The notes: generated from the sequence alone by a model not told the origin. A stretch of DNA of 64,000 nucleotides from an uncultured Candidatus Saccharibacteria bacterium (GCA_964646575.1 CAZYFT010000002.1:4459-68458), one strand, 5' to 3'; shown: positions 24,274 to 53,371, counted from the first letter of the stretch. Translations and numbers: made by a program.

Positions 24274-24289
24274 CCACACCTTCAGTCGG

Positions 24290-25524: not shown

Positions 25525-25615
<91 letters not shown>

Positions 25616-29593: not shown

Positions 29594-29971
29594 TTAAAAC
29601 TGCGCGAGTACGAAGTTTACAATTGCGTAGCCGAGGAGTGCCACAACAATACCAACCACCGCATAAAGAATGGTGTCTTTAGCAGCCTGGGTGTTTTTAG
29701 AATCTCCACCGGAAAGAACATAACGCAAGCCGCCAACTACCAGCATAATAACTGCAGCAACGCCTACGATGTAGAGTAGTATGTTCGTAACACGCCCCAC
29801 AGCCTGCGGGACTGTTAGGGGACTAGCCGGACCACACTCTACGCCACTGTTCAGACCACCAGCTGGATCACCACACGCAGCCAAAGCACGCCCTGGTAGC
29901 TGTAATACTGCGGAGACAGCAGATGCGCCCAAGACCGATACCTTTAAAACTGAGTTGCTAGTAAACTTCAC
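29594..29971 (-). CDS. VirB2/TrbC-like pilin-type small membrane protein (paralog 1)
   Basis: 125 aa: signal peptide, hydrophobic helix, short polar loop (GGDSKNTQAAKD), and a second hydrophobic helix to the C-terminus. This is the TrbC/VirB2 topology. Confidence 0.55.
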   Translation of the reverse strand: MKFTSNSVLKVSVLGASAVSAVLQLPGRALAACGDPAGGLNSGVECGPASPLTVPQAVGRVTNILLYIVGVAAVIMLVVGGLRYVLSGGDSKNTQAAKDTILYAVVGIVVALLGYAIVNFVLAQF

Positions 29972-29986: not shown

Positions 29987-30364
29987 TTACGCTGCAAACT
30001 GACCGAGTACAAAGTTAACAATCGCATAGGCAAGAAGGGCTACAACGATACCGATAACCGCATAAAGAATGGTGTCTTTAGCAGCCTGGGTGTTTTGTGA
30101 GCTACCACCAGAGAAGATGTAGCGGAAACCACCAACGATAAGCATAATCACAGCAACTACACCGATCACAAAGAGCATAGTGTTGGTGATTGTCTGAATG
30201 TTTGCCACGAGATCAGTCTGCTGATCGTCGCCCTTAGCGGCACTAGCGCCTTCGTTAATTCCGCCTACTGCGGCTGAAGCGTGTCCCGCAAGTGAAGCTG
30301 CCACTACGGTATTTCCAGCCAACACGAGTGAACCTTTTTTAAGTAAATCTTTTGCATTACGCAT
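29987..30364 (-). CDS. VirB2/TrbC-like pilin-type small membrane protein (paralog 2)
   Basis: 125 aa. The C-terminal 45 aa are near-identical to paralog 1 (NTQAAKDTILYAVIGIVVALLAYAIVNFVLGQF), including an identical 38-nt DNA stretch. Confidence 0.55.
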   Translation of the reverse strand: MRNAKDLLKKGSLVLAGNTVVAASLAGHASAAVGGINEGASAAKGDDQQTDLVANIQTITNTMLFVIGVVAVIMLIVGGFRYIFSGGSSQNTQAAKDTILYAVIGIVVALLAYAIVNFVLGQFAA

Positions 30365-30507: not shown

Positions 30508-31068
30508 CTAGCGGAACTGTGCACTAACAAAGCTAATAATTGCTGTACCCAAAAGCGCCACGCCAACACCAATCACCGCATACAAAATTGCATCTTTTGC
30601 GGATTTTGTCTTGCCCGGGTCTCCAGCTGAAACCACGTACAAGATTCCAGAGACTATTACCATAATTACAGAAGCTGCACCAATAACCCACATGAAGAGC
30701 TGAATGCCCGAATTGACCACGCTCTGAACGTTTGTGGCCCCAGCAACAACTGGCAAGAAAAAATCTACTAACGCTCGAGCGATAATAGCAATTACAAAAC
30801 CGATTACCGTGTAAATAATCGACTGAATAGCCATCTTGGTTCGATCAGGACGACCGGCAGAAATTACAAACATAAAACCTGAGTACACAATCATGACAAC
30901 GCCAACTACACCAACCACCCAAAGCAAGAAAGTGAAAAGATTATTCACCAACTGGGGAAGTGTGGCTGGGCCATTATTAAATTGTGCCGGCTTATTGGTA
31001 GGGAGGGGAAGATTAGTTGCCTCCGCAGCCACAAAAAGCTTAAGACCAAGTTGATGCAAAACGCCCAT
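30508..31068 (-). CDS. tandem-duplicated pilin-like membrane protein (two helix-loop-helix units)
   Basis: 186 aa with two repeats of the hydrophobic-loop-hydrophobic unit (PDRTKMAIQSIIYTVIGFVIAII / PGKTKSAKDAILYAVIGVGVALLG). Confidence 0.5.
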   Translation of the reverse strand: MGVLHQLGLKLFVAAEATNLPLPTNKPAQFNNGPATLPQLVNNLFTFLLWVVGVVGVVMIVYSGFMFVISAGRPDRTKMAIQSIIYTVIGFVIAIIARALVDFFLPVVAGATNVQSVVNSGIQLFMWVIGAASVIMVIVSGILYVVSAGDPGKTKSAKDAILYAVIGVGVALLGTAIISFVSAQFR

Positions 31069-31072: not shown

Positions 31073-31933
31073 TTACCCCGTTATCACTCTACCAATTAAG
31101 TTAAATATCAAACTCACCGAAGCAACTCCAAGTAATCCAATTACCGCATACGTAATAATCTTGCGAGCAGACTGAATAGCTTGTGGGTTTCCGGCAGCGG
31201 TCATCATTCTGATACCTCCCACAATTATCATCGTTACAGCCAATGCGCCTCCAAGGAACTGTATGTACTGCCATACCGCAACAATAAGCTCGAGGATGGT
31301 GTTCTGGTCAAAGTTATTTAGGTCTACACCCAAGAAGCGTCCACCACCAGTAACGCCGATAAGGTCTAGCGTTACACGAGCAGCAAAAAAGAGCGCAATG
31401 CTAGAAGCAGCTAACGTGATGCGTTTCTTACCAGCTTTCAACGCCTCTGGGGAGGCTCCACCGGTAATAACTTGCACCATGCCCAGGCCGATCATAATTG
31501 CAAAAACAAGCACCCCAATATTTAAAATGTAGTTTGTAAGGTTCTCTACAATAGATTCAATTGCAGTTTGATTATTGCCTCCAGTGCAAAGTGTAGAAAC
31601 GAAGCCGCTACTAATAATTTGCCCATCAGCCTTAATATCATTACAAGTGCCTTTAACGGACTGGGGGTTGCTGAGCCTCTCATTTTCGGCAGCCGTACTT
31701 GTACCATTGCCAATTGGCTCACTTCGAGCGGGACCTTTAGTTCCTGGAGGAAGATTCTCAACACATAACGTCCCCCGTGTTGTGTCTTGCCGAGTTGTAC
31801 CAGCAACACCTCCCGTAAGCGTACAGGGTTTACCGGCATCATTTTGTTGATCGGCATAAGCAACCGGAAGGGTATATACATGTAGACTAATAACCAAAAG
31901 AATAAGGAATAAGTACGCGAGGCGGCTTTTCAT
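31073..31933 (-). CDS. secreted domain fused to two pilin-like helix-loop-helix units
   Basis: 286 aa: signal peptide, ~150-aa Cys-containing extracellular region, then two units ending QAIQSARKIITYAVIGLLGVASV. Confidence 0.5.
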   Translation of the reverse strand: MKSRLAYLFLILLVISLHVYTLPVAYADQQNDAGKPCTLTGGVAGTTRQDTTRGTLCVENLPPGTKGPARSEPIGNGTSTAAENERLSNPQSVKGTCNDIKADGQIISSGFVSTLCTGGNNQTAIESIVENLTNYILNIGVLVFAIMIGLGMVQVITGGASPEALKAGKKRITLAASSIALFFAARVTLDLIGVTGGGRFLGVDLNNFDQNTILELIVAVWQYIQFLGGALAVTMIIVGGIRMMTAAGNPQAIQSARKIITYAVIGLLGVASVSLIFNLIGRVITG

Positions 31934-31975: not shown

Positions 31976-34900
31976 ATGAATATTCTTTCCAAAAAACTGA
32001 ATATATTTCAGCAGGGGGCGCTGTTTGGCGTCCTGCTTATTCTTTCATTTTTGACATTTTCACAAAAAGCCGCTGCCGCCTCTGCTCCGGGCAAATGGCT
32101 GGATCCCCAAGGTGGACAGTGCCAATGGCTAAATGCAGCGCAGATTAGGTGTGCACCGGTTGCCGGGGCAGCTGTTGCAAACTATGCAGATTACTATTTT
32201 GACCCGCAATCCACCCTCGCTGCTGGGCACGCTGTATACCGAGTAAATGGAAATGATGAAAATCTTTCAGATTGGGGATACATCCATATCCTCAGCGATT
32301 ACGAAGTAGCCCAAATAAGTAACAGTCCAACAGATGCCGTTGGTGGCTACGAGCAAAAACCCATCCAAGATTCTGATAATTTCGCCAATACATCTGATGA
32401 AGAAATTAATGGGCGTCTAGTTTGTGGTCCGGGTAATACATCTGCAGATTGTACGTTGGGCTTTACCAAGAACACAACTCAGTCAAAAAACCCTCTTTCT
32501 GAAAAAGACTACCTCGCCGCACTTACTATTGTCTCCAATGGAGGAAGTGAGTTCTTTAATGGAAAAGCCGCGGAAGAAGACTGCGCCGAGGATGCTGGCT
32601 CATTGGGTTTTGTGTTGTGTCCAATTTTAAAAACAACACGTAATGCTGTGACAGCCCTCATCGGGGACGGGACTGGCAAGGGCTTCTTGGTGGAGTTACT
32701 CACTATCCGACCACTAAGCTCCACAAACACTCCAGAACTTTACAATGGCTGGCAAGCTGTGAGAAATATCGCTCTCGGGCTGTACATATTAGTGTTTGTT
32801 TTAATTATCTTTGGTAATGGAATCGGTTACGACCCCTACACAATTAAGCGAGCATTACCTCGATTGGCAGCCGGCGTTGTCTTAACATTCGCCTCATGGT
32901 GGATCATGCAGACACTTGTAGATCTTTCGAACCTTGTGGGTAATGTTATTCCCGCCTTTGTTGCTCAAATTTCCGGAAATGCCGGAATTGCCGACTATGC
33001 AATCGATCTGAATCCTGCCCTTGCCTTAAGTTCCGTAATCCTGCTCATTGTGGTTGCGTTTGTCGCCCTAGGCGCCTTGCTGGTTGGAATTGCTGGTTTA
33101 ATTATGCGCATAGTTATAATTTATGCGCTTGTCCTCCTAGCGCCCGTTGCATTCATAGCCTGGGTATTACCAAACACTGAAAGCATCTTTAAAAAATGGT
33201 GGAAAAACCTCGTTAAGGTACTCATGATGTTTCCAATAGTTACAGGAATGCTATCACTCTCCTTGTTCTTCCAGACTGTTCTGTTAAACACTCAAACCGA
33301 TGCAGCTGGAAATAGTAATGGTGCCGGCGGGGCAGCAGCGAACTCGGTAACCGGAATAGTAGGTATGCTTGCACCACTCATCGCAATCATCATGATTCCT
33401 AAGACCTTTAAGTGGGGTGGAGAGGCTTTCGCTGCGGCGGCTGGATACATGGCCGGAAAGGCCAGTGGGGCTGCCGACAAAGTTGCAAACGCGCCAAAAA
33501 CTGTTGGTGGCAAAGCTGCCGGGAGCGCAAAAGAACGAGCACTTGCAAGTGACCGTGTAGCTCGTATGACTGGCGGCATGGCTTCCAACAGGCTAGGTCG
33601 GCTGGCTGGCGGAAAAGCTGCTATGCGAGCTAGTGGTAGAGCCAGAGGTAGGGTTGTGAGTGAGGCCGAAAGTCTAACGAAGAATATGACAAACGACCAG
33701 CTCGAGAAAATTGCTGCAACCGGGACCACAGAAGAAAGAATCGCAGCAATTGGTCAGCTCGCAAAGCGAGGTGACCGTAAAAAACTTGCTAGCCTTGGAT
33801 CAAAAGATGGAAAAACCGCAAAGGCCTACAATGAAGCAAGTAGTAGATATGCTGGTGATTTTGGAAAGAATGCAGACCTTCGAAGGATTGGTGGCAAGCT
33901 AACTAATACGAGCGACCTGTCGGTCGAAGATGCAGCAAACCTCAACCAAGACGCGCTGGCAGTTGGCCTGGCAACTGGATCTATTTCCTACGCAACAGCC
34001 AAGTCCATGTATGAAAGCGATAAGGTTAAAGCATCATTGTCTCCTCAAAAAATGCACGACCTCACAACTTATCTAAGCGGGGCAGGCTACAAGGACTCTT
34101 CAGGTAAGCCTATTCAGGTGCAGGGTAAGAATAACCGTTCAGACACCGATACTGTGATCGGAACAAGAACTACCGCTGATGGTCGAGGTCAGAAGATTAC
34201 AGTAAATGGATCCAGCTCACTAAATACGCAACTCAAGGCAACTGCCGTACAGGCAAAAGTTCAATACGATGATCATATGAATGGAGTTGTTGACGCCAGC
34301 GGGAATCGAGTACCGATGAATGTTAACCCCGAATCTGTAGCTCTAGATCCTAACACTACAAGCATTGAAACACCTCCTGTAGTTAAGGCTGCACCGAGTG
34401 GCTCTATACCCTACAGGGCAGGTAAGGCTGTTGGGCAGGTACGCAGCCAAATGGGCCAAGGAGGTTACGTGGCAGTGCCCGGAGGAAACACCACCAATAC
34501 TGGGGCCCCAACTCAGCAGGCAAGCCCAGCGCCACCACCGCCGCCACCACCAAGTGGAGGGGCACCAACTTACACCACACCGGCCGGAGCACCTAGGTAT
34601 ACGACGAGCGGTACGCCTGTACCTCCACCTCCAACCGGTAACGTTCCAGTTTGGAGCAACCCTACACCGCCACCGCCAAGTGGAACCTCAGGCAGCACAA
34701 CACCACCTCCATACACGGGTCCAGCGGCGCCATGGCAGCCAGCCCCAAGTTCACAAACCCCACCTCCACCACCAAGTGGAGGGGCGCCTACCAGCACGAG
34801 CGGTGGAGGCACAGTCATAAACAATGTCACCAACGAAAATTCAACGACAAATAACAACTCAACTACCAACAACGTAAAAACCGTTCTCAACAACAACGGC

Positions 34901-35188
34901 ATACCGAGTTCGATTGCGCTTGGTGCAGCCACGCAGCTTGGAAGTGCCAAAAATCGCTTCGGAGCAGGATCAGCTGAACACGACGGCCTAGCCGGTATCG
35001 AGAGTAAGCTCAATGATCTGGGTCGTATGATTCAGTCCGGCTCACTCAGCCAAACTCGATTGCGTGAAAACATCCGTGACATCCATCGTGATATCGATGA
35101 TCTCCCGCCCGGAGCACATGACCAGCAAGATAACCTACGTGGCGTACTCAATAACATCGAACGCAATGCCACCGACGACGAGGCATAG
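31976..35188 (+). CDS. VirB6/TrbL-like polytopic T4SS channel protein with long Pro-rich C-terminal extension
   Basis: 1070 aa: signal peptide, ~250-aa exodomain, five or six TM helices (res ~260-480), then K/A-rich repeats and PPPPPPSGGAPT-type Pro-rich repeats. This is the architecture of Gram-positive VirB6 homologs. Confidence 0.5.
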   Translation: MNILSKKLNIFQQGALFGVLLILSFLTFSQKAAAASAPGKWLDPQGGQCQWLNAAQIRCAPVAGAAVANYADYYFDPQSTLAAGHAVYRVNGNDENLSDWGYIHILSDYEVAQISNSPTDAVGGYEQKPIQDSDNFANTSDEEINGRLVCGPGNTSADCTLGFTKNTTQSKNPLSEKDYLAALTIVSNGGSEFFNGKAAEEDCAEDAGSLGFVLCPILKTTRNAVTALIGDGTGKGFLVELLTIRPLSSTNTPELYNGWQAVRNIALGLYILVFVLIIFGNGIGYDPYTIKRALPRLAAGVVLTFASWWIMQTLVDLSNLVGNVIPAFVAQISGNAGIADYAIDLNPALALSSVILLIVVAFVALGALLVGIAGLIMRIVIIYALVLLAPVAFIAWVLPNTESIFKKWWKNLVKVLMMFPIVTGMLSLSLFFQTVLLNTQTDAAGNSNGAGGAAANSVTGIVGMLAPLIAIIMIPKTFKWGGEAFAAAAGYMAGKASGAADKVANAPKTVGGKAAGSAKERALASDRVARMTGGMASNRLGRLAGGKAAMRASGRARGRVVSEAESLTKNMTNDQLEKIAATGTTEERIAAIGQLAKRGDRKKLASLGSKDGKTAKAYNEASSRYAGDFGKNADLRRIGGKLTNTSDLSVEDAANLNQDALAVGLATGSISYATAKSMYESDKVKASLSPQKMHDLTTYLSGAGYKDSSGKPIQVQGKNNRSDTDTVIGTRTTADGRGQKITVNGSSSLNTQLKATAVQAKVQYDDHMNGVVDASGNRVPMNVNPESVALDPNTTSIETPPVVKAAPSGSIPYRAGKAVGQVRSQMGQGGYVAVPGGNTTNTGAPTQQASPAPPPPPPPSGGAPTYTTPAGAPRYTTSGTPVPPPPTGNVPVWSNPTPPPPSGTSGSTTPPPYTGPAAPWQPAPSSQTPPPPPSGGAPTSTSGGGTVINNVTNENSTTNNNSTTNNVKTVLNNNGIPSSIALGAATQLGSAKNRFGAGSAEHDGLAGIESKLNDLGRMIQSGSLSQTRLRENIRDIHRDIDDLPPGAHDQQDNLRGVLNNIERNATDDEA

Positions 35189-35190: not shown

Positions 35191-36030
35191 ATGGGGCAGT
35201 ATAAAGTCCCTCAAAACGTAGAGAGTGAAGATAGACTCCTAGGCCCCTTAACGATGAAGCAATTCATCTACGCTATCATTGGTCTTGGGTGGGGATTCCT
35301 TATTTGGCGTATTCTCTCACCGGGAGGCACGGCTGCAATCCCCATTATGCTTCTGCTCATTGTGCCGGTTTCTGGTTTTATGCTTCTCTTGGCATTCGGC
35401 AAAAGGGAAGAGCAGAGTTTTGAGAATTATCTCATTGCCCTCATTCGTTTTAGTGTCGTACCGCGCAAGCGCATTTGGCTGAAAGACGACTTTAAGGGTG
35501 AAGTGATTATTGATGCACCACCTCCGCCAAAACCCACAACTCCAACTAAAGAAGATATTGCGCATGTCCACAGCCGCTTACAACAACTCTCACTAGTTGT
35601 AGACACGCGTGGACACGCCAAGACTCCAGATGTTCAGCTGGCCGACCAAACAAATCGGGCTGCGGAATTTTCTCAGCGCGTATTTACACCTCCGGAACTC
35701 CAAAAACCTATCTTAGAAGGGGGAGTGCAAGAACAAGATGACGTATTAGCAACAACAGAAGCAACAGCCGCTCAAGCGCAAAAAGTTGATGAGCTACTAC
35801 AAAACCAAGAGTACTCCATACGCGAAGAGGCCATGAAAAAGATGACTCAGGCCGTCGAAAATCCCGAAACTCAGGCCGCCGAAACCCCTACACAAACCTC
35901 CCAGCCACCAGCTGATAATGCTATACTGAAAAAGGTTATGGATGCACCTCACCTAAGTGTTGCTCAGGTAGCCCAAGTGGCTAATCGTGGGCAGCTCGCA
36001 CAAGGTCAGGAAATCCAAATCCAACAATAA
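35191..36030 (+). CDS. VirB3/PrgI-like small membrane protein with extended C-terminus
   Basis: Two N-terminal TM helices (FIYAIIGLGWGFLIW... IPIMLLLIVPVSGFMLLLAF) and a position immediately upstream of virB4. Confidence 0.4.
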   Translation: MGQYKVPQNVESEDRLLGPLTMKQFIYAIIGLGWGFLIWRILSPGGTAAIPIMLLLIVPVSGFMLLLAFGKREEQSFENYLIALIRFSVVPRKRIWLKDDFKGEVIIDAPPPPKPTTPTKEDIAHVHSRLQQLSLVVDTRGHAKTPDVQLADQTNRAAEFSQRVFTPPELQKPILEGGVQEQDDVLATTEATAAQAQKVDELLQNQEYSIREEAMKKMTQAVENPETQAAETPTQTSQPPADNAILKKVMDAPHLSVAQVAQVANRGQLAQGQEIQIQQ

Positions 36031-36177: not shown

Positions 36178-37098
36178 ATGCCACAGGAGGCTGCCAAAAC
36201 TCCACAACAAATTGAATATGAGAAATCGATCACTCCTACTAAGGAGTCGAAAGATCAGCGCACCAGCACGCAAAACCACCTGATGTTTACCGAAATTAAG
36301 GATGGCATCGTTGTAATGCGTGATGGCTCTTTGCGTATGGTCGTACTTGCGAGTGCGCTCAACTTTGACCTTAAGAGCCCGCAAGAACAGGATGCGATCG
36401 AATATGCCTACCAAGGATTTTTAAATGGTCTGCATTTTCCGATTCAAATTATCGTACGCTCTCGCAAACTCGAACTTGATGGCTACCTGGAAAATCTTGA
36501 AGTCTTACAGGCAAATCAAGAAAATCCACTTTTAGCCGGACTAATGGAAGATTATATTTACAATATTCGTGGGCTTTTGGAGCAAGTAAACATCATGAAT
36601 AAAGAGTTTTATGTCGTTGTGCCATACTACTTGGATGTCGCGTCAAAAAAGAAAGATAATGCCGGATTTAAGCTCGCCAGCCTCTTTAAAACTAACACCG
36701 ACACTATGCAAACCACGGAGATGTTTGAGCAACGCAAACGTGATCTTATTCAGCGCACTAATCTTGTTGCGCAAGGGTTGGCACAGCTTGGTATCCGGGC
36801 AGCCGTACTCTCAACCCAAGAAATTACCGAGCTCTTCTATACTGCCTACAACCAGGAAGAAGCTATTAATCAAAACTTAGTGGACATCGAACAAATGACT
36901 ACGCCAGTTGTAGAACGCGGCGATGCAGATCCAGAGCCATATACTCAGTCTTCCTACACCGAGCCAGTGCCAGATGATTTATATTCTGCGGCCGCTCAAG
37001 CCCAACAACCCGCAGCCCCAACTGAGGGAACTACTCCAGTTCAACAGCCTGCAGCTCAGCAACCACCACAAAATCCATTGATTGGAGGAGGGGTATAA
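36178..37098 (+). CDS. T4SS-associated hypothetical protein (306 aa) translationally coupled to virB4
   Basis: TAATG stop-start overlap with virB4, different reading frame, Gln/Pro/Ala-rich tail. No catalytic motif. Confidence 0.5.
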   Translation: MPQEAAKTPQQIEYEKSITPTKESKDQRTSTQNHLMFTEIKDGIVVMRDGSLRMVVLASALNFDLKSPQEQDAIEYAYQGFLNGLHFPIQIIVRSRKLELDGYLENLEVLQANQENPLLAGLMEDYIYNIRGLLEQVNIMNKEFYVVVPYYLDVASKKKDNAGFKLASLFKTNTDTMQTTEMFEQRKRDLIQRTNLVAQGLAQLGIRAAVLSTQEITELFYTAYNQEEAINQNLVDIEQMTTPVVERGDADPEPYTQSSYTEPVPDDLYSAAAQAQQPAAPTEGTTPVQQPAAQQPPQNPLIGGGV

Positions 37099-39005
37099 TG
37101 GCGCGCAAACCAAAAGTCGATCCCGCTCAACAGGCCGCCATTGATATGGCTGCAGCTCAGCAACAAGAAGCTGAACGCGCCTATCGCGAGGGTATTCTTA
37201 CTCTGCGTGACATTATTGCACCAAGCTCGTTTACCATCGAGAATAATTACCTCATTATTGGCACTCGCTATGTGCGCACATTGTTTGTGTACGGCTATCC
37301 GCGCACCCTATTTACCGGTTGGCTCTCGCCAATTATCAACCTCGATGAGGTTATTGATATTTCGCTCAATATCATGCCGGTTGAAAGTCGTGTAGTACTT
37401 GAGAACCTCAAGAAAAAAGTAGGTCAACTCGAAGCCTCTGTGCAAATTAACGCCGAAAAAGGTAAGATTCGCGATCCAGGACTAGAAGCTGCCATTGGTG
37501 ACGCCGAAGAACTTCGCGACAAGCTCCAGGTAGGTGAAGAACGCTTCTTCCGTTTTGGGCTTTACATCACGCTCTACGGAAAGGATATTGAGGAACTCGA
37601 TCTTATTCAACGCAAAATTGAATCCATCCTCGGAACAAGCCTCGTCTACACAAAACCTGCTAGCGTACAGATGGAACAAGGTTTCAACTCGACACTCCCA
37701 ATTGGCACCGATCAGCTGGGTATTTACCGCAACATGAACACGGGATCACTCTCAACTAGTTTTCCGTTTACTACCGCCGAACTCTCTCGCAATGAAGGGG
37801 TTATGTATGGCTTAAACCGCCACAACAATGGACTCGTGCTGTTTGATCGTTTCAGTCTCGAAAATGCCAACATGGTAGTGTTTGCAAAGTCTGGTTCCGG
37901 TAAGAGCTTTACCGTAAAACTCGAGTGCTTGCGCTCGCTCATGCTGGGTGCAGAGATCATTATTATCGATCCAGAAAACGAATACCGCACGCTATGTGAC
38001 GCAGTGGGCGGGAGCTACATTCATTTGTCACTCGCCAGTAGTACTCGTATTAACCCATTTGATATCCCAACCACAGTTGATCCCGAAGAAGCCGACAACG
38101 CGCTGCGCGCAAACATCATCATGCTACACGGTTTGCTCCGTTTGATGTGCGGTAAGCTTGAGCCAGCAGAAGAAGCAGACCTGGATGTTGCCCTTATTAA
38201 TACCTACGCCCAAAAAGGCATTACCAACGATCCGCTAACACATCGCAGCCAGCCACCTGTGATGAGCGATCTGTATAACACCCTCATTACCATGGGTGGA
38301 ACCGGCCCAGCAATTGCCGCCCGTCTGCGTCGCTACACCGAAGGCACATTCTCTGGTATTTTCTCTCAGCAATCAAACGTCCAGCTCGATAATAAATTTG
38401 TCGTCTTCAATATTCGCGACCTCGAAGATGAGTTACGTCCAATTGGTATGTATATTACGCTGAACTATATCTGGAACCGTGTAAAAACCGATCGACGTAA
38501 GCGCATTCTAGCCGTAGACGAAGCCTGGCAGCTTATGAAGCACCCTGACTCGGCATCATTTATGTTCTCAATCGCTAAGCGCGCCCGTAAGTATTATCTA
38601 GGACTCACAACCATCTCGCAGGACGTGGAGGACTTCTTAAACGACCGCCTGGGACGTGCTGTAGTAAACAACAGCTCATTGCAGGTCCTTCTAAAGCAAG
38701 CACCATCCGCCGCCGATGTTGTTGCGGAAACATTCAAGCTAACAAGTGAAGAAAAAAACCGCCTAACTCAGTTCCCGGTAGGAGAGGGGCTATTCTTTGC
38801 TGGATCTAACCACGTGGTTATTCGCATTTTGGCGAGCCCCATGGAAGAGCAGCTCATCACCACTAACCCGCAACAACTTCTCGAACGACAAATGCGCGAC
38901 CAAGAAGAAGCCCAACTACAGGCCGCAGAACCAGCCCCGGAATTGCAACAAACAGCTCCAGAACCACCGGCAACATACCAGCAGCCAGGAGGGCAGGTTA
39001 GCTAA
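37098..39005 (+). CDS. virB4: VirB4/TrbE/CagE-family T4SS ATPase
   Basis: Walker A FAKSGSGKSFT, Walker B ILAVDEAWQL and the VirB4 N-terminal domain (LIIGTRYVRTLFVYGYP). 635 aa. Confidence 0.9.
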   Translation: MARKPKVDPAQQAAIDMAAAQQQEAERAYREGILTLRDIIAPSSFTIENNYLIIGTRYVRTLFVYGYPRTLFTGWLSPIINLDEVIDISLNIMPVESRVVLENLKKKVGQLEASVQINAEKGKIRDPGLEAAIGDAEELRDKLQVGEERFFRFGLYITLYGKDIEELDLIQRKIESILGTSLVYTKPASVQMEQGFNSTLPIGTDQLGIYRNMNTGSLSTSFPFTTAELSRNEGVMYGLNRHNNGLVLFDRFSLENANMVVFAKSGSGKSFTVKLECLRSLMLGAEIIIIDPENEYRTLCDAVGGSYIHLSLASSTRINPFDIPTTVDPEEADNALRANIIMLHGLLRLMCGKLEPAEEADLDVALINTYAQKGITNDPLTHRSQPPVMSDLYNTLITMGGTGPAIAARLRRYTEGTFSGIFSQQSNVQLDNKFVVFNIRDLEDELRPIGMYITLNYIWNRVKTDRRKRILAVDEAWQLMKHPDSASFMFSIAKRARKYYLGLTTISQDVEDFLNDRLGRAVVNNSSLQVLLKQAPSAADVVAETFKLTSEEKNRLTQFPVGEGLFFAGSNHVVIRILASPMEEQLITTNPQQLLERQMRDQEEAQLQAAEPAPELQQTAPEPPATYQQPGGQVS

Positions 39006-42000
39006 TGTTTCGCCTGGAGGGTGACTCACAGGACCCGCTCACTAGCTCTCGACACTACAAAGATATTAAGAGTGCCGGTAAGCAGTCCAACACTGGACCT
39101 GGATCGATGGCTGACAAGGCAGCGAACGGGCATATAGACAGCCTTTCATCGGCCGGCAAGAAGGGCGGTGAAGCTGCTGCAAAAGGCAGCCCTAGTGCTA
39201 GTGGTGCTGCGTCGAAAGGTGCTTCCAGTGCCGGTGCTAGCGCCACAAAAGAAGCCGGAAAAGCCGCGGCCGATGCGGCGGCTAAAAAATCCATTTCTAA
39301 GGCCGTAGGAAAATCGCTCGGTAAAGGCCTTAATGTAAAAGGTGATCTTGATGATGTAAAACGCACCGCACAAGAAGATGGTGCGGCTGCTGCGGCTGCT
39401 GCGGCAGGTCTAAAAGCTGCCGAAACAGTCGCCTCAAAAGTACCAATCGCATCGCAAGTCGCAACAGCCATTCGGGCTGGCCAAGCTGCCCTGGCTAAAG
39501 TTGGTATCAATATTAAGGATCAGTACATTATGTACATACTCTTATTGGTGCCAATTCTTGCCCTCGTGCCAGTGATAGTTTTTGCACTTATTGTGTTTTT
39601 CGCCTGGAAAAATCCACAAGCTGTCCTCAAGCTTTCATTTACCAATTTTAAAACTTTTGTTGGTGCAGCCCAGTCACTCGTCATCGAAAACGGAGGTGCC
39701 TCAAAGATGGCTTACGAAGTTGAGGCAGGGAGCAATCGTGCAGTCGCAGCTCCGGGTGATGCAGCAAAACCAGAGGAAGGCACGTACGAATACAAATTGG
39801 CTCAAATTGACTGGGAAAAGGCAAAATATCAAACCCTCCCACTTGATAGCCGCTGCGTGATCAAAACAAAAAAAGTTGTTTCTGTTCTCGACGGAAAAGA
39901 GAGGTCGATTATTGAGTCTGTAGAGCTTAAAACTAATCCTGGTAGGGACCTCCAGGGGGTAGCTCGGTCCAACTGTATTAACAATACCTATCCAATTTGG
40001 AATACTATGATGCGCTCACAATTTGTGCGTGATGGCGTCAATAAAAATCTCAATGTTCGCTACGCATATGCCGAACCGCAAGACTCAACTACACTCGACG
40101 AATCTTCCGATGAATTCTCAACCACCCTCCGCGACAAAACTCTCACCAGAATATGGAATCGTGGCCAAGCTATCAATAAACCCATTCAATCCACACCTGA
40201 AGAGGTTACGGCAAATGATGAAGAAGTAAAACGCTTCTTCACTAACACCCGAAAAGTTCAAAAGTACGCAGAAGAAACTAACATCGCAAAATATAGCAAT
40301 GAAGTAATTACTTGTGCTGATATGTATGTCCCGAAAGGGGATAGCTACTATCAAAAAGATATCGACAAAATGAATCATGACCTGGCATGCGGCATTAACC
40401 CCAAAGATATTCTGCTATATACGACTAGTCCACCCGAAAGCTCGACAAATGATCCTGATCCATCAATCGCCATCAAGCCAAAACGAGCAGCTCTCAATGT
40501 AGTTTGTGATCTCTACTATAATCTTCTTGCCCCAGATAGCGATTATGCTCCAGCAGTAGATAAGTACCGACAAAAAGTAAAAGACCGCATCAACTCTGCA
40601 GCTGTTGCTGGCTGGCAAGCCATGACATATGCCGATACACACCAAAAAAGATTTATCGACCTTAAAGAGTTGGGGGGAGACTTTTATAAAATTTCCGGTA
40701 TACAGCAAGGTCAAGAATACAATTATGCCCTAGACTACCGAAAGAATGGAGTTGCGCTCGAACCTGATGCTATCTCCCGCATTGTTGGCTACTACAACAA
40801 GCAAGCAGATGCCATTCCAGCCATCCAGCAAGAAAAACAATATCAAGATGCATTAAATCTTATCTTCACATACGTAACTTCAGGGGGCGACGCCTCTCCT
40901 TGTGATGCAGCTCGAGATACTGGCGAATTCGATAACACAACCAGCAACGACCCTCAGAGAGACGCAAAAATTAATACTTTTTATAGCGATGTGTATCCTG
41001 CATTCAAAAAGGCAATCGCCGGAATAGACTTCTACGCCAACCCATCACAAAGCAAATCCGTAAGCCAAATTTATACAGACCTCACATACGAAGATCTTCG
41101 CTTCCGATTAATTCGCATTGAATCTAACGTTGCAACCGCCGGAACAGAAGATGGTCCTCAAAACTTTAACCGTATGAACTTCGGCATGAAAGCCTACACA
41201 AACGCTTTTACCCTTTCGATGGGTGGAAATTTCCTTACACAAAATGAGGCTATTAGCCGCGATGAATCGACTCGGGTTGCAAGATACTATGATGACAAAA
41301 CAAAGGGGATTGCTTGGCGCTTCTTCAACCTTGATAACCCCGGCTCATTTGCAAGTAGGCTTGCCGTAGCATCTACCGATAAGCCCCAAAATATACCTGG
41401 AAATATAACATCGACCATCGCATACGTCATGAACCCAATTAGAAATGCTGCGGGAGAAAATGGTACCCTTACAGCATTTCTCACGGGTGAGAGCCGTGTT
41501 GCTTCCGCTAGTTCAGTCTACGATTCTTCAAACTTAAAGCTAGACCCGGCAGGTATGCCCGAAGCCTTCAATCAGATCAATCCAATTGAGAATGCGCGCT
41601 ACATTGAAGGTGTCAAGAAAAATAACCCAACTCTCGCCACCGAACTCGCTGGCTACGATCAGTGCTTTAAAGAGTTTATTCCAAGCCGGTTCCATCTGCT
41701 GAATCCACCTCCTGACAAAGTAGATCTCTACAAAAACGTATGTACGCCACTCCTAGACAGCACTGCCACGCGAGATCCAAATAGTCTCATTCTCCGCTAC
41801 CGAGCCTATCACTTTCATATGCTCCAAGCTGATGCACTCGTATATTTGTCAGATCCTAATAAGGAAGATCCCAACTTCAGTGCGCCAGAAGGCGGAAGTA
41901 CAACAAATCCTGTTGCTGCCACTCCAGGCGGTGGAACACCCACTAACCCAAGTGGCGATACCTCAGCATTGCAATGCCCACCAGGAACTACCGACGCGGG

Positions 42001-42421
42001 TATCGGTGAAAAATATGGTGTCGGCCGCGTGCTCATGCACCGACTCCGACTCTGTAATGTACAAGGTATCACCGTAAATGTTTCAATTGCCAATTCGTTG
42101 AATGCCATGCTCACCGAGATGAAGGGAGCTGGTATTAATCTTGGAGGTTGGGGTTATCGAACCTTCGATAAACAGGTGGAGCTCAGAACTACAAATGGCT
42201 GTCCGGATACCTATAATAGTCCAGCAAGCACATGCGGAACACCAACCGCACGACCTGGACAATCAAATCACGAAAATGGAGAGGCGATCGATTTCACTTC
42301 CGGAGGATCAACATTGCGTAGCGGAACTCCAGGCTTCAATTGGCTTAAAGCAAACGCCGCTCGCTACGGGTTTAAAAATCTGCCTTCAGAATCATGGCAC
42401 TGGTCGATTGACGGGAAATAA
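39005..42421 (+). CDS. giant surface protein with C-terminal peptidase M15 (VanY/D-Ala-D-Ala carboxypeptidase-like) domain
   Basis: 1138 aa: Ala/Lys/Ser-rich N-terminus, one TM helix, a large exodomain, and C-terminal SNHENGEAIDF (SxHxxGxAxD) and ESWHW zinc-ligand motifs. Its start overlaps the virB4 stop (TAATG). Confidence 0.65.
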   Translation: MFRLEGDSQDPLTSSRHYKDIKSAGKQSNTGPGSMADKAANGHIDSLSSAGKKGGEAAAKGSPSASGAASKGASSAGASATKEAGKAAADAAAKKSISKAVGKSLGKGLNVKGDLDDVKRTAQEDGAAAAAAAAGLKAAETVASKVPIASQVATAIRAGQAALAKVGINIKDQYIMYILLLVPILALVPVIVFALIVFFAWKNPQAVLKLSFTNFKTFVGAAQSLVIENGGASKMAYEVEAGSNRAVAAPGDAAKPEEGTYEYKLAQIDWEKAKYQTLPLDSRCVIKTKKVVSVLDGKERSIIESVELKTNPGRDLQGVARSNCINNTYPIWNTMMRSQFVRDGVNKNLNVRYAYAEPQDSTTLDESSDEFSTTLRDKTLTRIWNRGQAINKPIQSTPEEVTANDEEVKRFFTNTRKVQKYAEETNIAKYSNEVITCADMYVPKGDSYYQKDIDKMNHDLACGINPKDILLYTTSPPESSTNDPDPSIAIKPKRAALNVVCDLYYNLLAPDSDYAPAVDKYRQKVKDRINSAAVAGWQAMTYADTHQKRFIDLKELGGDFYKISGIQQGQEYNYALDYRKNGVALEPDAISRIVGYYNKQADAIPAIQQEKQYQDALNLIFTYVTSGGDASPCDAARDTGEFDNTTSNDPQRDAKINTFYSDVYPAFKKAIAGIDFYANPSQSKSVSQIYTDLTYEDLRFRLIRIESNVATAGTEDGPQNFNRMNFGMKAYTNAFTLSMGGNFLTQNEAISRDESTRVARYYDDKTKGIAWRFFNLDNPGSFASRLAVASTDKPQNIPGNITSTIAYVMNPIRNAAGENGTLTAFLTGESRVASASSVYDSSNLKLDPAGMPEAFNQINPIENARYIEGVKKNNPTLATELAGYDQCFKEFIPSRFHLLNPPPDKVDLYKNVCTPLLDSTATRDPNSLILRYRAYHFHMLQADALVYLSDPNKEDPNFSAPEGGSTTNPVAATPGGGTPTNPSGDTSALQCPPGTTDAGIGEKYGVGRVLMHRLRLCNVQGITVNVSIANSLNAMLTEMKGAGINLGGWGYRTFDKQVELRTTNGCPDTYNSPASTCGTPTARPGQSNHENGEAIDFTSGGSTLRSGTPGFNWLKANAARYGFKNLPSESWHWSIDGK

Positions 42422-42424
42422 TCT

Positions 42425-44335
42425 ATGAAAATAAGAAAACTACATCTCAATAAATTGAAGGCTAGATTCGTTAGTTTTACGTACATTGTCTCTACATTGC
42501 TTCTTATTGTGACGCCAGCTCAAGCTGCGAGCGAACAGCGACAAGATATCGAGCGCACTCCTTTTTACGATAAAAATGCTGAACTAATTTGTGGGCCATC
42601 TGGCTCATCGCAAGCAGCAGGGGGCGGAGGACTTACGGTTGGGGGATCAGTCTACTATCTTGGTGATTCCATAGGTGAAGGAGTTAAGACTCCTCTCGAA
42701 AAAAATCTCACAACAGCAGGCTATAAGATAGTGGTCAATGCGAGTAATTCTCGCTCTATCAGTGGTCCGGGAAGAGATGGGTTGTCTGGCTTGGAAGCGG
42801 CAGCGAAAGACGCCGCCGTGATTCAAGGCGCTCAAGTAGTAGTTATTGAGCTTGGCACAAATCCAGAGTCGAATGGTGATTTTGCAGGCAATCTTAATAA
42901 CCTGATCACACAAATTAAAACAGCCGGCCCACAGGCAAAAATCTATCTTGTAGATGTTGCCGTAACGACCGAACAAGCTACTCGACTCGGATCGGCTAAT
43001 GTAAATAAAGCAATTTATGCAAAAGCCGCAGAGCTCGGTACGCCAGTGATAAGTAGATTTAAAATTTATTATCCTGGGGGTAATCCGGAAACCTTCGAAA
43101 ATACTGCAAGCCCCTCATTACCATTTGATGCCGCTGGAATTCATAGCCCTAACTCACAAGGTTATGAAGCGCTTGCGGGAGTTATCCAGACCACCATCAC
43201 TACCTCGAGTGCACTCGCAACACCAAGTGCATCCGACCCCTGTCAGTGTCCAGTTTCAGGGGGTGCCGGAGGAAGCGCGGCCACCATTAACCTTGCCGGT
43301 AACGATAATGTTGAAAAAGCATTTAACTTCTTCGTAAGCAAGGGCTTTACGCCACAGCAATCTGCCGGAATCGTAGGTAACCTGATTGCAGAATCTGGTG
43401 TAAATCCAAAGCGGGTCCAGAGTACCCCAACCCCCGAAGGGGACCGAGATAATATTACGGTCAACAACAAAACTGGCTACGGCATCGCACAGTGGACTTC
43501 TTCTGGGCGACAGCAAGGCTTGGTTGATCTTGCACGATCCCGCGGCATGACTATCGAAGGCGATCTAGCGCTTCAGCTCGACTATTTAATGATTGAGCTT
43601 ACCGTCGGCTATAAAGATGTATATGACGCTATTAAACTTTCCGCAGACCTTAAGGCCGCTTCAGATGTATTTATGACCAAGTTTGAACGCCCTGCAGATC
43701 AGAGTGAAACTGCTCGGCAAAAACGTGCCGGTATGGGGCAGCAGGTACTAGATCTGTATGGCAACGGCGCAAGTGCCAGTGGCGCCCTCATTAGCGGAGC
43801 AACAAACTGTAATACCGGAGCAGGGGGACAGGCGGCCGGCTTCGTAGGCTTCCCACTCCAAACCACTAAAGCGCGAATGACCGAGCTAAATGGTGGTCAA
43901 TTTAAGAATGGAGTGATGGGGCAAGGTGGACATCCATATGCAGCGCACGACATCATGGCCGACCCCGGCACCCCAGTAGCCGCAATTCTATCTGGCAAGG
44001 TTGTGCAGGTGGGAACGGATAAGTGTCCGGGTAGACTCATTGCTGTCTGGAGTGAGCAGGCAGGCGTAACTGTTGCATACCTACACCTATCCATCGAACA
44101 AACCATCGTGAAGGAAGGTGATTCTATTGCTGAAGGTCAAATAATCGGCTTCGTTGGGCCACCGGCAGCTGGCTGCGGAACCCCGCACCTCCACATTGAT
44201 GCAAACACAACAGACCGCCGAATAGGCTGCAAGCGTGAAAGTTGTTCTGCAGAAAACAAAGCGCTGTTTCAGGCTGGAAGCGATAAGATTGGGCTACCAA
44301 AATCACTTTTCGATAGCTACCAAAGACTACCGTAA
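42425..44335 (+). CDS. secreted three-domain cell-wall hydrolase: SGNH esterase + lysozyme-like muramidase + M23 peptidase
   Basis: Signal peptide; GDSIGEG (SGNH block I); AGIVGNLIAESGVNP...GYGIAQWTSSGR (CwlT/phage-tail lysozyme-like); HPYAAHDI and TPHLHID (M23 HxxxD/HxH). Confidence 0.75.
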   Translation: MKIRKLHLNKLKARFVSFTYIVSTLLLIVTPAQAASEQRQDIERTPFYDKNAELICGPSGSSQAAGGGGLTVGGSVYYLGDSIGEGVKTPLEKNLTTAGYKIVVNASNSRSISGPGRDGLSGLEAAAKDAAVIQGAQVVVIELGTNPESNGDFAGNLNNLITQIKTAGPQAKIYLVDVAVTTEQATRLGSANVNKAIYAKAAELGTPVISRFKIYYPGGNPETFENTASPSLPFDAAGIHSPNSQGYEALAGVIQTTITTSSALATPSASDPCQCPVSGGAGGSAATINLAGNDNVEKAFNFFVSKGFTPQQSAGIVGNLIAESGVNPKRVQSTPTPEGDRDNITVNNKTGYGIAQWTSSGRQQGLVDLARSRGMTIEGDLALQLDYLMIELTVGYKDVYDAIKLSADLKAASDVFMTKFERPADQSETARQKRAGMGQQVLDLYGNGASASGALISGATNCNTGAGGQAAGFVGFPLQTTKARMTELNGGQFKNGVMGQGGHPYAAHDIMADPGTPVAAILSGKVVQVGTDKCPGRLIAVWSEQAGVTVAYLHLSIEQTIVKEGDSIAEGQIIGFVGPPAAGCGTPHLHIDANTTDRRIGCKRESCSAENKALFQAGSDKIGLPKSLFDSYQRLP

Positions 44336-44349: not shown

Positions 44350-45138
44350 ATGAATAAACTCTCCACTCAAGCCAAGCTGATTATCGGACTCTCATTCGTA
44401 ACCCTAGTATTGCTCTGCGTGATGATATATGTGCAGTTCGTTCAGTTTCGTATTGTTAAATCTACCCCCGATACAAACAACTACCCAAGCACAATGGGCC
44501 TACTCGTAGTGGAGTTTAATGAAAAATTAGACGCCAAGGCTATTCAGGATGCATACAATAAAGATGCAGCAAGTGTTATAAAGTTTAGTTTTGATAGCCC
44601 AGCCTATATAGAAGTGTATGATAAGACTCTCAAGATAACGATTCAGGAAACTGCTAAAGAAGGTAAGTACAAACTTCTACTTAATAATATTAAATCTGAA
44701 GACGGCAGTATATTTAAACAGGAAATTCCTTTTGTCGTAAAGAATATTGCATACAATGACATGCCCGAAGAAACGCAAAAACTTTTTAATGAGTATGCTT
44801 CAGAGGGAGAGACTCTGCCTCAAGATCCAATTGTAGGAGTGCTCCCTTACCAAACGGATAAGTATAAAATTAGCTACGTTTTTCCAGAAGAAAATGTTGA
44901 GATACCCGCAACAATAACTATTACTATGAAATTCTTTGAGCCAGGTGATAATGCATTACCAGAAACGCCAGCCCAAAGACAGGCTTATTTAAATGACCTC
45001 AGAAAATATCGGACCGAAGCGTTAGCCTACCTCAAAGATAAGGGCATCGATATTAATAAATATGTCATAAAATATACGGAGTTTGATTTACAAAACGAAT
45101 TTCCGTCTGGATACGTCGCTCAACCAGAAACCGAATAA
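44350..45138 (+). CDS. membrane-anchored extracytoplasmic protein (AT-rich), last gene of the T4SS-like operon; VirB8-like topology
   Basis: 262 aa with a single N-terminal TM and a ~230-aa external domain. Assignment is by position and topology only. Confidence 0.4.
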   Translation: MNKLSTQAKLIIGLSFVTLVLLCVMIYVQFVQFRIVKSTPDTNNYPSTMGLLVVEFNEKLDAKAIQDAYNKDAASVIKFSFDSPAYIEVYDKTLKITIQETAKEGKYKLLLNNIKSEDGSIFKQEIPFVVKNIAYNDMPEETQKLFNEYASEGETLPQDPIVGVLPYQTDKYKISYVFPEENVEIPATITITMKFFEPGDNALPETPAQRQAYLNDLRKYRTEALAYLKDKGIDINKYVIKYTEFDLQNEFPSGYVAQPETE

Positions 45139-51045: not shown

Positions 51046-51513
51046 ATGAAAATTTCTGAAGAGCACCTAGCAAGCGCAAAACAAATTATTGCAGATATGC
51101 TGACAGCTATGGGGTTCGAAGAATTTACGGTGTACGAAGATCAGTTGGAGAGTAGGCAAATTCTCTCGATATCTGCAGATAATCAAGCGGTTTTAATTGG
51201 TCGTAAAGGGGAGAGCTTGACGGCTTTTCAGTCACTATTTAATGCCGTTTTAAAGCATAAAGATCCTACGGCTCCCTTTATTACAATCGATATCGCCGGC
51301 TACAAAAAAGAGCGTATTGAAAAAGTGATGCGGATTGCTGAGGAGACAGCGCAAAAAGTCCGTGACTATGGCCGCGAACAAGAGATGCGACCGATGAATG
51401 CATTTGAGCGTCGTGTGGTACATATGGTGTTAGCCGAAATGCCTGAACTAGAAACAGAGAGCATCGGTGAAGACCCTAATCGAAAAGTAATTGTTCGTTT
51501 GAAGCAGACTTAG
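51046..51513 (+). CDS. Jag/KhpB-family RNA-binding protein (Jag_N + KH + R3H)
   Basis: R3H motif region (FERRVVHMVLAEM) and conserved position after yidC. Confidence 0.75.
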   Translation: MKISEEHLASAKQIIADMLTAMGFEEFTVYEDQLESRQILSISADNQAVLIGRKGESLTAFQSLFNAVLKHKDPTAPFITIDIAGYKKERIEKVMRIAEETAQKVRDYGREQEMRPMNAFERRVVHMVLAEMPELETESIGEDPNRKVIVRLKQT

Positions 51514-53282
51514 TCGACCGGCGGGAAGTCGAGCGATGATCGATAGGTAGTATAGAATGTATTAGTTTTAGAAACCTGGCCGTTTACTACTATGTCGCGA
51601 TAGAATACTGTTTTTGATGGCTGAGTTGCGTCATTACTTCCGCTAATAAAGTAAGGTCCGCGAATAACCCCGCTTTTTTCTTTAGTTCCATAAAAACGGA
51701 ACTTTAGTGTGGTACCAACCATTTCAGTTTGGATAAGTATATGGTGAGATGTGTCGTTTCTGAACTTAAAATCTACTTGAGGGTAGTAAATAGTGGCGTC
51801 AACGCCTGGAACTCCATAGGGAGCGGTGTAATATTCAACTGCAAACGAGTGATTATATCTTTCAAGGATCGGCAGACCGGCTAGCAGGGCGGCACGAAAT
51901 GCCGTGGAGCTAACTTGGCAGAGTCCGCCGCCGTACTGACTTTCGGTACGGCCCTCGAGAATGACACGCCCTTCCTTGTAGCCTTGTTCTGGCCCAACTT
52001 TTCCGAGGATTTCACCAAAACTAAACACCTGGCCAGGTTTAAGGAGTACACCATTATATCTTTTAGCTCCAACTCGTACATTTGTGAGGCGGTTTGCAGA
52101 TGAGCCAGGGAAGTATGACACGCCCTCAGACAGGAGTTCTTTAATTCCTAGCTGATCAATGGTTTCGCTGGTTACATCAGCCTTGGTTACGACTACTGTG
52201 AGCGGAACGGTGGTTTCTGGTGCTTGGGATAGAATTGTTTCTGAGATAGTTTTCGCGGTGGTATCGAGATCTACAGCGCGACCATCTTGGCTTTGCTGAA
52301 ATACGGTGGCTCGATCGCCTTCAACAGTAAGCGTGGCATCGACTGCTTTTTGGTTAATGTCTTTTGCAATCGAGTTGAGGTAGCTCTTGATGCGTGATGA
52401 ATCCATTCCTAATTGAGTGAGGGTTTCAGGTTGTTGGAGGTAATAGTTTTGGACTAAGTCTTGGCGCAGAGGCATAGTGCCATCAGAATAACTGAGCCAA
52501 CTTAGGAGTTCTTGGGTTGGTACGGTCCAATTTCTCTTTTCAAACGTCAGTGTCATTGGGGTGCGTACATATGGTTCGAGGTTAGCCCTTTTTTCTTCGA
52601 GGGCAGAGCTAGTGACTGAAGCTGTTTGAGTGTGTGTTGTTACTGTTATATTGCTTCTTTGTAACCTGGTAACGACATCTGTGTAGTCTCTAACGAAGCC
52701 TTCTAAATTCATGCGGGCGCCCGGTTGGCTATCGTTAACTACAAGACTACCTTGTTCTCCAGCCGTATAGCTAGCGTTTTGCACGGGAACAGCTAGGCTC
52801 TTAGAAAGCGGCTGCAAAATAGTGTAAAGCTTTGTGGTGTTATATGTGACTTGCTTGTCACTATTGCTATGTATACCTAGCAAGAGTCCTGCCTGATCAG
52901 AGAGTTGCTGGAAAGCTTGGCCATTGCGACCTTTTTGGTAGGCTGTCGCTAGGTCATCTTGTATGGCATAGCGCAGTTCAACCTCTGAGGCGGGGATAGA
53001 GACTGTTTCTTCCGACGCATCGCTCTTAACGACAATTGTGGAAGATTCGATATATTGCTGAGTTTCTTTTTCTACTAAAGCTTGGGCTTCGGTCTTTGTG
53101 AGGCCACCCACATACACGCCGTAGACCTTCACGCCCGGGAGAAATCTACCCTGGTAGGCTAGGCGTAAGACTCCAAGTAAAATAACTGCAAACAAGGCAG
53201 CGCCAACAGCGATTAGGAAGGCGATTTGCCAGCGTTTGAGTTGGTATTTTGTGGGCAATGAGAACTGCTCGGATGGATTCAT
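51510..53282 (-). CDS. VanW-family protein with N-terminal membrane anchor and PG-binding-like repeats
   Basis: C-terminal VanW block (YGGGLCQVSSTAFRAALLAGLPILERYNHS). The start is inferred at MNPSEQ because the longer ORF runs into the upstream terminator. Confidence 0.7.
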   Translation of the reverse strand: MNPSEQFSLPTKYQLKRWQIAFLIAVGAALFAVILLGVLRLAYQGRFLPGVKVYGVYVGGLTKTEAQALVEKETQQYIESSTIVVKSDASEETVSIPASEVELRYAIQDDLATAYQKGRNGQAFQQLSDQAGLLLGIHSNSDKQVTYNTTKLYTILQPLSKSLAVPVQNASYTAGEQGSLVVNDSQPGARMNLEGFVRDYTDVVTRLQRSNITVTTHTQTASVTSSALEEKRANLEPYVRTPMTLTFEKRNWTVPTQELLSWLSYSDGTMPLRQDLVQNYYLQQPETLTQLGMDSSRIKSYLNSIAKDINQKAVDATLTVEGDRATVFQQSQDGRAVDLDTTAKTISETILSQAPETTVPLTVVVTKADVTSETIDQLGIKELLSEGVSYFPGSSANRLTNVRVGAKRYNGVLLKPGQVFSFGEILGKVGPEQGYKEGRVILEGRTESQYGGGLCQVSSTAFRAALLAGLPILERYNHSFAVEYYTAPYGVPGVDATIYYPQVDFKFRNDTSHHILIQTEMVGTTLKFRFYGTKEKSGVIRGPYFISGSNDATQPSKTVFYRDIVVNGQVSKTNTFYTTYRSSLDFPPVD

Positions 53283-53342
53283 AGTGTGCGTGTATGGCTC
53301 CGTAACTATACATAGTATAACTGGTTTTTGTTCGGTGCGCGA

Positions 53343-53371
53343 ATAAAAAATCCCCACGCATAAACGTGGGG
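53343..53371 (-). terminator. intrinsic terminator CCCCACG-TTTATG-CGTGGGG + T7
   Basis: Perfect 7-bp stem and T-run on the minus strand after the CHAP gene stop. Confidence 0.65.

Follow-up and report, generated by a model that had tools for sequence, protein, structure and literature searches.

The stretch of chromosome analysed here comprises 64,000 nucleotides, one strand, from an uncultured Candidatus Saccharibacteria bacterium (GCA_964646575.1 CAZYFT010000002.1:4459-68458; the whole stretch is hereafter called the window). It carries a type IV secretion system (T4SS) locus in which the gene for the VirB4 ATPase is directly followed by two large genes for putative wall-cutting proteins of 1138 and 636 amino acids (aa). 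Such a gene pair has been reported before from a cultivated relative, Candidatus Southlakia epibionticum ML1, in which it is essential, and the window is a further instance of the reported arrangement. What we add is a map of the catalytic residues, a pattern of domain shuffling in which the M15 peptidase moves between genes, and an orphan protein family defined by the ectodomain.

The anchored protein and the exported triple enzyme

Both open reading frames (ORFs) that a previous sequence-only reading of the window had pointed out, at 39005-42421 (+) and 42425-44335 (+), were confirmed. The first four features below belong to the 1138-aa protein and the last four to the 636-aa protein.

39005..39529 (+): residues 1-175, cytoplasmic low-complexity tail (A 24%, G 12%, S 12%, K 12%; predicted local distance difference test score of the AlphaFold2 model, pLDDT, <50)
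39530..39604 (+): residues ~176-200, single transmembrane (TM) helix, the sole Kyte-Doolittle hydrophobic segment of the protein (peak 3.2)
39647..41884 (+): residues 215-960, all-helical, cysteine-rich ectodomain, the conserved core of the family
41990..42421 (+): residues 996-1138, M15B (VanY/LdcB-like) zinc peptidase domain
42425..42526 (+): residues ~1-34, Sec-type signal peptide ending in AQA before AS (basic n-region, hydrophobic stretch 11-29, AQA motif)
42659..43168 (+): residues 79-248, SGNH/GDSL esterase domain (Pfam Lipase_GDSL_2, PF13472, 34.3 bits, barely over the cutoff of 32.9)
43304..43756 (+): residues 294-444, gp13/CwlT-type muramidase domain (Pfam Phage_lysozyme2, PF18013, 111 bits)
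43943..44215 (+): residues 507-597, M23 (lysostaphin/LytM-type) zinc endopeptidase domain (Pfam PF01551, 53.4 bits vs 28.7)

The start codon of the 1138-aa protein overlaps the stop codon of VirB4. Its low-complexity N-terminus, in which alanine, glycine, serine and lysine make up 60% of residues 1-175, and its single TM helix had both been anticipated, and they are borne out by composition and hydropathy. Modelling predicts the tail to be disordered, and all 12 cysteines of the protein lie outside the membrane. The protein is predicted to be bitopic, that is, membrane-anchored rather than released; of the earlier description of both proteins as secreted, only the half that concerns the 636-aa protein, with its Sec-type leader, can be kept.

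At the C-terminus of the 1138-aa protein, the proposed M15/VanY-type zinc peptidase was upheld by the Pfam score (VanY, PF02557, residues 1024-1124, 41.9 bits vs a cutoff of 25) and by the motifs SxHx6D and ExxH, with R1052 (GYR), S1087-x-H1089-x6-D1096 and E1129-x-x-H1132 all in place. The domain falls into the LAS (Hedgehog/DD-peptidase) fold and is predicted to cleave the peptide stem of peptidoglycan, either as a carboxypeptidase or as an endopeptidase. Across 33 aligned members of the large-protein family, about half of which have a recognisable VanY domain, the motif positions are retained in 27 (H1089), 25 (D1096), 25 (H1132), 17 (E1129) and 16 (R1052) sequences.

The ectodomain (~750 aa) contains many invariant residues, conserved cysteines among them, and defines an orphan family: an exhaustive phmmer search of 1.84 billion representatives with the ectodomain alone returned only 43 clusters, nearly all of 900-1250 aa, and the few named relatives are all Saccharibacteria. 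Profile searches of the ectodomain against Pfam (E<=5, in three pieces), PHROGs, NCBIfam and the PDB returned nothing, and comparison of the ectodomain with itself by hhalign revealed no internal repeats. A profile search with the family alignment in a collection of 5.8 billion proteins found only 17 already-known proteins, the low-complexity tail having probably swamped the word filter.

The combination of SGNH, lysozyme-like muramidase and M23 domains attributed to the 636-aa protein was recovered in full by Pfam, together with conserved catalytic residues. In the SGNH domain, G80-D81-S82, G144-T145-N146 and H240 are conserved across relatives, and block V reads D235-AAGI-H240 in the window protein and DGIH, DLGVH or a sequence with no aligned Asp in relatives. 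The core of the AlphaFold2 model has a pLDDT of ~97, and Foldseek gave 70 matches to SGNH enzymes at E<=1e-3. Because the structural neighbours include carbohydrate O-acetylesterases and the peptidoglycan O-acetyltransferases PatB and OatA, but also TesA-type lipases (and PAF-AH), an O-acetylated glycan or peptidoglycan is a plausible, though not established, substrate for the modelled domain. In the muramidase domain, E323 is invariant among relatives and aligns with Glu45 of phi29 gp13 (3csr/3csq), which is reportedly the catalytic glutamate of that enzyme.

The best PDB relative of the M23 domain is lysostaphin (7.7e-8). Of the two zinc motifs earlier read into this domain, HxH holds, as H588-L-H590 is invariant, together with H554, in 16 sequences, but HxxxD does not: the first motif of the window protein and its close relatives is H503-P-Y-A-A-H-D509 (Hx5D), in which H503 and D509 are conserved and H508 changes to Y or F, and the canonical form (HGGVD) is found in a distant relative (P0038). 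Zinc binding is probably retained by the Hx5D motif. Searched against plasmids, the 636-aa protein gave only single-domain matches at ~30% identity. A phage origin was also considered, the distant Phage_lysozyme2 relatives (e.g. P0050) being phage endolysins, but was rejected because every relative with the full architecture is a T4SS-linked Saccharibacteria gene.

The T4SS locus and its conservation

The embedding of the pair in a T4SS operon, likewise proposed by the sequence-only reading, was corroborated by four T4SS_pilin genes, PrgI, a TrsD/TraC-like protein and VirB4, and by the TAATG overlap with VirB4. Besides the pair, the locus comprises the following genes.

29594-29971, 29987-30364, 30508-31068 and 31073-31933 (-): four VirB2-like T4SS pilin genes (Pfam T4SS_pilin, E 3e-11 to 9e-21)
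31976..35188 (+): 1070-aa protein at the position of the extended VirB6-like SEML1_0011/0013 (by conserved position and the annotation in the Wang 2023 supplement)
35191..36030 (+): PrgI, VirB3-like (Pfam PrgI, E 2e-14)
36178..37098 (+): TrsD/TraC-like protein, akin to the N-terminal part of VirB4 (weak NCBIfam TrsD match; PF26593 TraC-like, precomputed on an identical gene)
37098..39005 (+): VirB4 ATPase of the CD1110 (Gram-positive conjugation) family (NCBIfam conju_CD1110, 379 bits vs a cutoff of 325; Pfam P-loop_TraG)
44350..45138 (+): 262-aa membrane-anchored protein, last gene of the operon (hydrophobic segment at residues 4-37; 32% identity to a gene of locus L008 carrying the immunoglobulin (Ig)-like Pfam domain Big_5)

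The locus is a chromosomal T4SS of the Gram-positive (MPF-FATA, CD1110-like) type and adjoins recF, dnaN and dnaA; the pilin array is divergently transcribed, and the same array is present in related loci. TAATG stop/start overlaps are found at the TrsD/VirB4 and VirB4/1138-aa junctions, and the next two junctions, after the 1138-aa and after the 636-aa gene, are gaps of 3 and 14 bases. This layout suggests that both genes of the pair are co-transcribed with VirB4 and, apparently, translationally coupled to it. A split or pseudogenised VirB4 (306 aa + 635 aa) was considered and rejected, since a TrsD-like protein paired with VirB4 is the usual arrangement in Patescibacteria. Among the window ORFs of at least 500 aa (n=8), none encodes a type IV coupling protein (T4CP) or a relaxase; seven are otherwise assigned and the remaining one, of 589 aa, has no Pfam match. 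As neither a relaxase nor a T4CP is found nearby among these ORFs, the system does not appear to be a conjugation system.

Gene order around the pair is conserved. In seven species-representative Saccharibacteria genomes, the succession VirB6-like, PrgI, TrsD, VirB4, large anchored protein, hydrolase and recF-dnaN is kept on every contig of sufficient length, even where the large protein is only 29% identical, and two more distant relatives (28-30% identity) have the same order. Phage contexts yielded only remote single-domain relatives. With gene order conserved and phage contexts limited to such remote relatives, the related loci examined contained no orthologues unlinked to T4SS genes, which the sequence-only reading had named as the observation that would speak against it. 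The named relatives of the pair all belong to Candidatus Saccharibacteria or Saccharimonadia, and proteins identical to those of the window are already in public assemblies (P0001, P0067).

The conservation of the machine core differs from that of the wall proteins, VirB4 being 79-99% identical across loci vs identities down to 29-55% for the two wall proteins. In every variant examined, the gene after the anchored protein combines a glycan cutter (lysozyme2 or SLT_2) with a peptide or amide cutter (M23, CHAP, VanY, Amidase_2 or C39_2), as the following hydrolases illustrate.

Window: SGNH + lysozyme2 + M23
L008: SGNH + lysozyme2 + CHAP
L009: SGNH-like + SLT_2 + M23
L011: SLT_2 + Amidase_2
ML1: glucosaminidase + lysozyme2 + Cys-peptidase

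Variation also affects the large protein, whose tip is VanY in 15, M74 in 6 and M23 in 5 of 33 representatives and none of these in the rest. At locus L014 (4656-9184 of CAZIMF010000027.1), the large post-VirB4 protein has 842 aa and no peptidase, and VanY is fused to the Phage_lysozyme2 protein; this movement of the VanY domain between adjacent genes in one lineage suggests that the two proteins act as one unit. At locus L011 (9506-14263), the large homologue has 1585 aa, with a big insertion that separates its TM-proximal part from the conserved core; the 455-aa SLT_2 + Amidase_2 hydrolase comes next.

The ratio of nonsynonymous to synonymous substitution rates (dN/dS), computed against one 95%-identical relative, is 0.038 for the 1138-aa gene and 0.039 for the 636-aa gene, with 0.007 for VirB4, 0.009 for dnaN and 0.045 for recF. 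Both genes of the pair are functional and under purifying selection. Positive selection or an arms race was considered and rejected at gene-wide dN/dS values of ~0.04; the SGNH segment has a value of 0.13, which is not interpretable at its low dS.

Several observations concern the neighbours of the pair and the remainder of the window. The 1070-aa protein had no Pfam or NCBIfam match; compared with its counterpart at a 95%-related locus (L005), residues 1-753 are 66% identical and the C-terminus 92%, the middle part being poorly conserved. The 262-aa protein has no Pfam match of its own. At the same operon-closing position, loci L008, L009, L011 and L012 encode Big_5, PEGA or CarboxypepD_reg beta-sandwich proteins, whose number and size vary by locus, and the ML1 equivalents, SEML1_0004/0005, are essential. 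There is no recognisable immunity gene at the locus, the downstream genes coding for TM-anchored Ig-like/PEGA proteins. The 589-aa ORF (4696-6465, -) encodes a predicted membrane protein and lies in the sole block of high guanine-plus-cytosine content of the window (60.7% at 4001-6000 vs ~48% elsewhere). Just past the origin region, three envelope-related genes (51510-53357, 53379-54590 and 55814-56857, all -) encode a 615-aa VanW + PG_binding_4 protein, an LGFP-repeat protein and a GH5-like glycoside hydrolase. Of nine tRNA genes in the window, eight are found in 20670-25611 (+), five of these being packed within 23242-24270.

Proposed role of the pair and its possible target walls

We consider it likely that the pair forms a dedicated cell-wall-remodelling module, a functional VirB1 equivalent, of this chromosomal Saccharibacterium T4SS. 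The membrane anchor, the Sec signal, the stop/start overlaps, the conserved synteny and the purifying selection argue for wall remodellers associated with the machine rather than for translocated effectors. In the mechanism that we propose, the anchored 1138-aa protein would dock at the T4SS, with its tail toward the ATPases and its ectodomain across the wall zone; the muramidase would locally cut glycan strands, the M15 and M23 domains would cut peptide stems or bridges, and the SGNH domain would strip an O-acyl modification that blocks the muramidase. The gap so formed would let the T4SS channel and the VirB2-like pilus cross the epibiont's own wall, and the adjoining wall of the host may be breached by these enzymes as well. 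The window also encodes a FemAB-family protein (10120-11304, -; Pfam E 7.6e-36), from which the epibiont's own wall probably has interpeptide bridges and would thus offer a plausible self-substrate for the lysostaphin-like M23 domain. The essentiality of the positional equivalents in S. epibionticum fits a role in machine function.

Some considerations weigh against this assignment. The evidence from sequence is compatible with action on the epibiont's own wall or on the host wall alike, and genes of a minimal genome could also be essential because they serve as general autolysins. The largest and most conserved part of the pair, the ectodomain, is without an assigned fold, and its role as a scaffold is one that we infer. 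Intact motifs are no proof that all four activities are used, given that the LytM and CHAP domains of PrgK, the Enterococcus counterpart discussed below, turned out to be inactive. The window pair matches SEML1_0007/0006 of ML1, with an orthology that we infer from gene order, size and domain content. Finally, the module role is proposed from domains, motifs and gene context.

According to a different explanation, the main substrate of the pair would be the actinobacterial host's peptidoglycan where the epibiont attaches, as for a phage tail-tip lysin. The T4SS or pilus would gain access to the host membrane, or muropeptides and amino sugars would be freed for the auxotrophic epibiont, and the swappable catalytic domains would be tuned to the chemistry of the host wall. 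We regard this as possible but rather unlikely. The lysozyme2 + M23 core is built like the phi29 gp13 tail lysin, catalytic domains are exchanged from lineage to lineage alongside a T4SS core that remains 79-99% identical, the amino-acid sequences of the wall proteins diverge faster than those of VirB4 and dnaN, and enzymes of O-acetylated glycans are among the SGNH neighbours. However, the large protein is anchored in the membrane of the epibiont, the gene-wide dN/dS of ~0.04 carries no arms-race signature, and Gram-positive conjugation hydrolases are similarly varied in their domains without being host-directed.

It also speaks for host-directed action that the Saccharibacteria T4SS, essential for epibiotic growth, is essential in the epibiotic context only, and that its function was called "completely unknown" as of 2024 (PMC11665869). 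Both wall-cutting proteins belong to the essential, surface-exposed parts of this system and, as enzymes, have testable activities; knowing whose wall is cut would tell a machine that merely assembles itself from one that physically opens up its host. The earlier suggestion of partner- or host-directed effectors rather than channel-assembly lysins is improbable as far as translocated effectors are concerned, in view of the anchor, the Sec signal, the coupling to VirB4 and the dN/dS of ~0.04, but the gp13 architecture and the domain swaps do leave room for action on the host wall.

More speculative, and doubtful, is a scheme in which the helical, disulfide-rich ectodomain is a new kind of T4SS part that bridges the envelopes of epibiont and host, replacing the unfound wall-spanning parts of the VirB8/VirB10 type. 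The exchangeable peptidase tip (VanY, M74, M23 or none) and the domains shuffled in the partner lysin would then be warheads matched to the chemistry of host peptidoglycan, and the pair would be a determinant of host range that opens a conduit for feeding or transfer.

The pair might also consist of housekeeping autolysins of a minimal genome that lie beside the T4SS only through operon compaction near the origin. Reduced genomes have few hydrolases, the equivalents score as essential in transposon sequencing (Tn-seq), and LdcB-type and M23 enzymes represent classic housekeeping activities. A pure housekeeping role is nevertheless very improbable because of the conserved T4SS linkage: in loci with as little as 28-29% identity the pair still comes immediately behind VirB4, although neighbouring genes outside the T4SS change, the first gene has a stop/start overlap with VirB4, and muramidases of this family serve conjugation systems and phage tails instead of the division machinery. 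Very improbable, lastly, is a role as T4SS-translocated antibacterial toxins, similar to the X-Tfe of Xanthomonas and Stenotrophomonas, that would be delivered into host or competitor cells, with an adjacent immunity protein to protect the producer: although antibacterial T4SSs do have peptidoglycan hydrolase effectors and both genes lie inside a T4SS locus, neither protein resembles a substrate that a T4SS would take from the cytoplasm by a C-terminal secretion signal, since one is TM-anchored and the other Sec-exported, the eight large window ORFs include no T4CP or relaxase, the downstream TM-anchored Ig-like/PEGA genes vary between loci and are not recognisable as encoding immunity proteins, and the equivalents in S. 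epibionticum are essential, not accessory.

Comparison with known systems

The window pair resembles SEML1_0007/0006 in locus order, sizes and domain logic; the shared order includes small exported proteins that come after the ~640-aa protein, whose Phage_lysozyme2 domain is central, and before recF-dnaN-dnaA. An essential T4SS encoded by SEML1_0006-0019 has been described in S. epibionticum (Wang et al., Cell 2023; PMC10633639); in the ML1 locus, SEML1_0006/0007 lie beside dnaN-recF, followed by VirB4, a TrsD-like protein, PrgI, VirB6-like proteins and six pilins, and SEML1_0005-0010 all scored as essential for epibiotic growth by Tn-seq. In the supplement of that study, SEML1_0006 is a 643-aa protein with glucosaminidase, Phage tail lysozyme and Cys-proteinase fold, and SEML1_0007 is a 1113-aa protein with a Hedgehog/DD-peptidase fold at 951-1105. 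The ~640-aa protein of ML1 therefore differs from that of the window in having a glucosaminidase N-terminal domain and a Cys-peptidase C-terminal domain where the latter has SGNH and M23. The ML1 genes have been proposed for the VirB1 role, as non-homologous substitutes (Quinonero-Coronel et al., Microb Genom 2025; PMC12102498).

PrgK of pCF10 (Enterococcus faecalis) is a membrane-anchored protein of 871 aa with LytM, SLT and CHAP domains, whose gene immediately follows that of the VirB4 homologue; the T4SS depends on PrgK to function, and its LytM and CHAP domains are inactive regulators (PMC11323569). PrgK and the TraG pIP501 class resemble the window pair in their position after VirB4, their N-terminal anchor and their combination of an M23/LytM-type domain with a glycan-strand cutter. 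In contrast, PrgK is a single protein, whereas in the window the activities are distributed over two proteins and come from other families (M15B, SGNH, Phage_lysozyme2 and M23), and the ~750-aa ectodomain of the anchored protein has no counterpart in PrgK. The earlier remark that typical T4SS hydrolases are far smaller is correct for Gram-negative VirB1 but not for Gram-positive systems, as seen from PrgK and from the two-domain VirB1 equivalents described in monoderms (PMC12102498). The SLT/CHAP profiles that define VirB1 (TrsG, PrgK, CD419) had no match in the window proteins, and relatives at the same position carry SLT_2 or CHAP. PF18013 muramidase genes occur within Firmicute conjugation clusters, for example on a Lactococcus plasmid beside a CD1115-family VirD4 and a TrbL-family protein.

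At the level of the single proteins, the phi29 tail-tip lysin gp13 shares with the 636-aa protein the muramidase family and the order of lysozyme and then M23, and phrog_11037 spans residues 294-609. CwlT of ICEBs1 is similar in that a Phage_lysozyme2 muramidase is fused to a peptidase, the partner domain in CwlT being NlpC/P60. The 636-aa protein differs from both gp13 and CwlT in its extra N-terminal SGNH domain, its Sec signal and the Hx5D zinc motif of its M23 domain. The C-terminal domain of the 1138-aa protein, in turn, resembles the LdcB/DacB LD-carboxypeptidases and VanY/VanXY (M15B) in fold and in zinc and catalytic motifs. These enzymes are stand-alone proteins of ~200 aa, whereas the M15B domain of the window forms the tip of an anchored protein of 1138 aa and is optional there, relatives of this protein having M74, M23 or none in its place.

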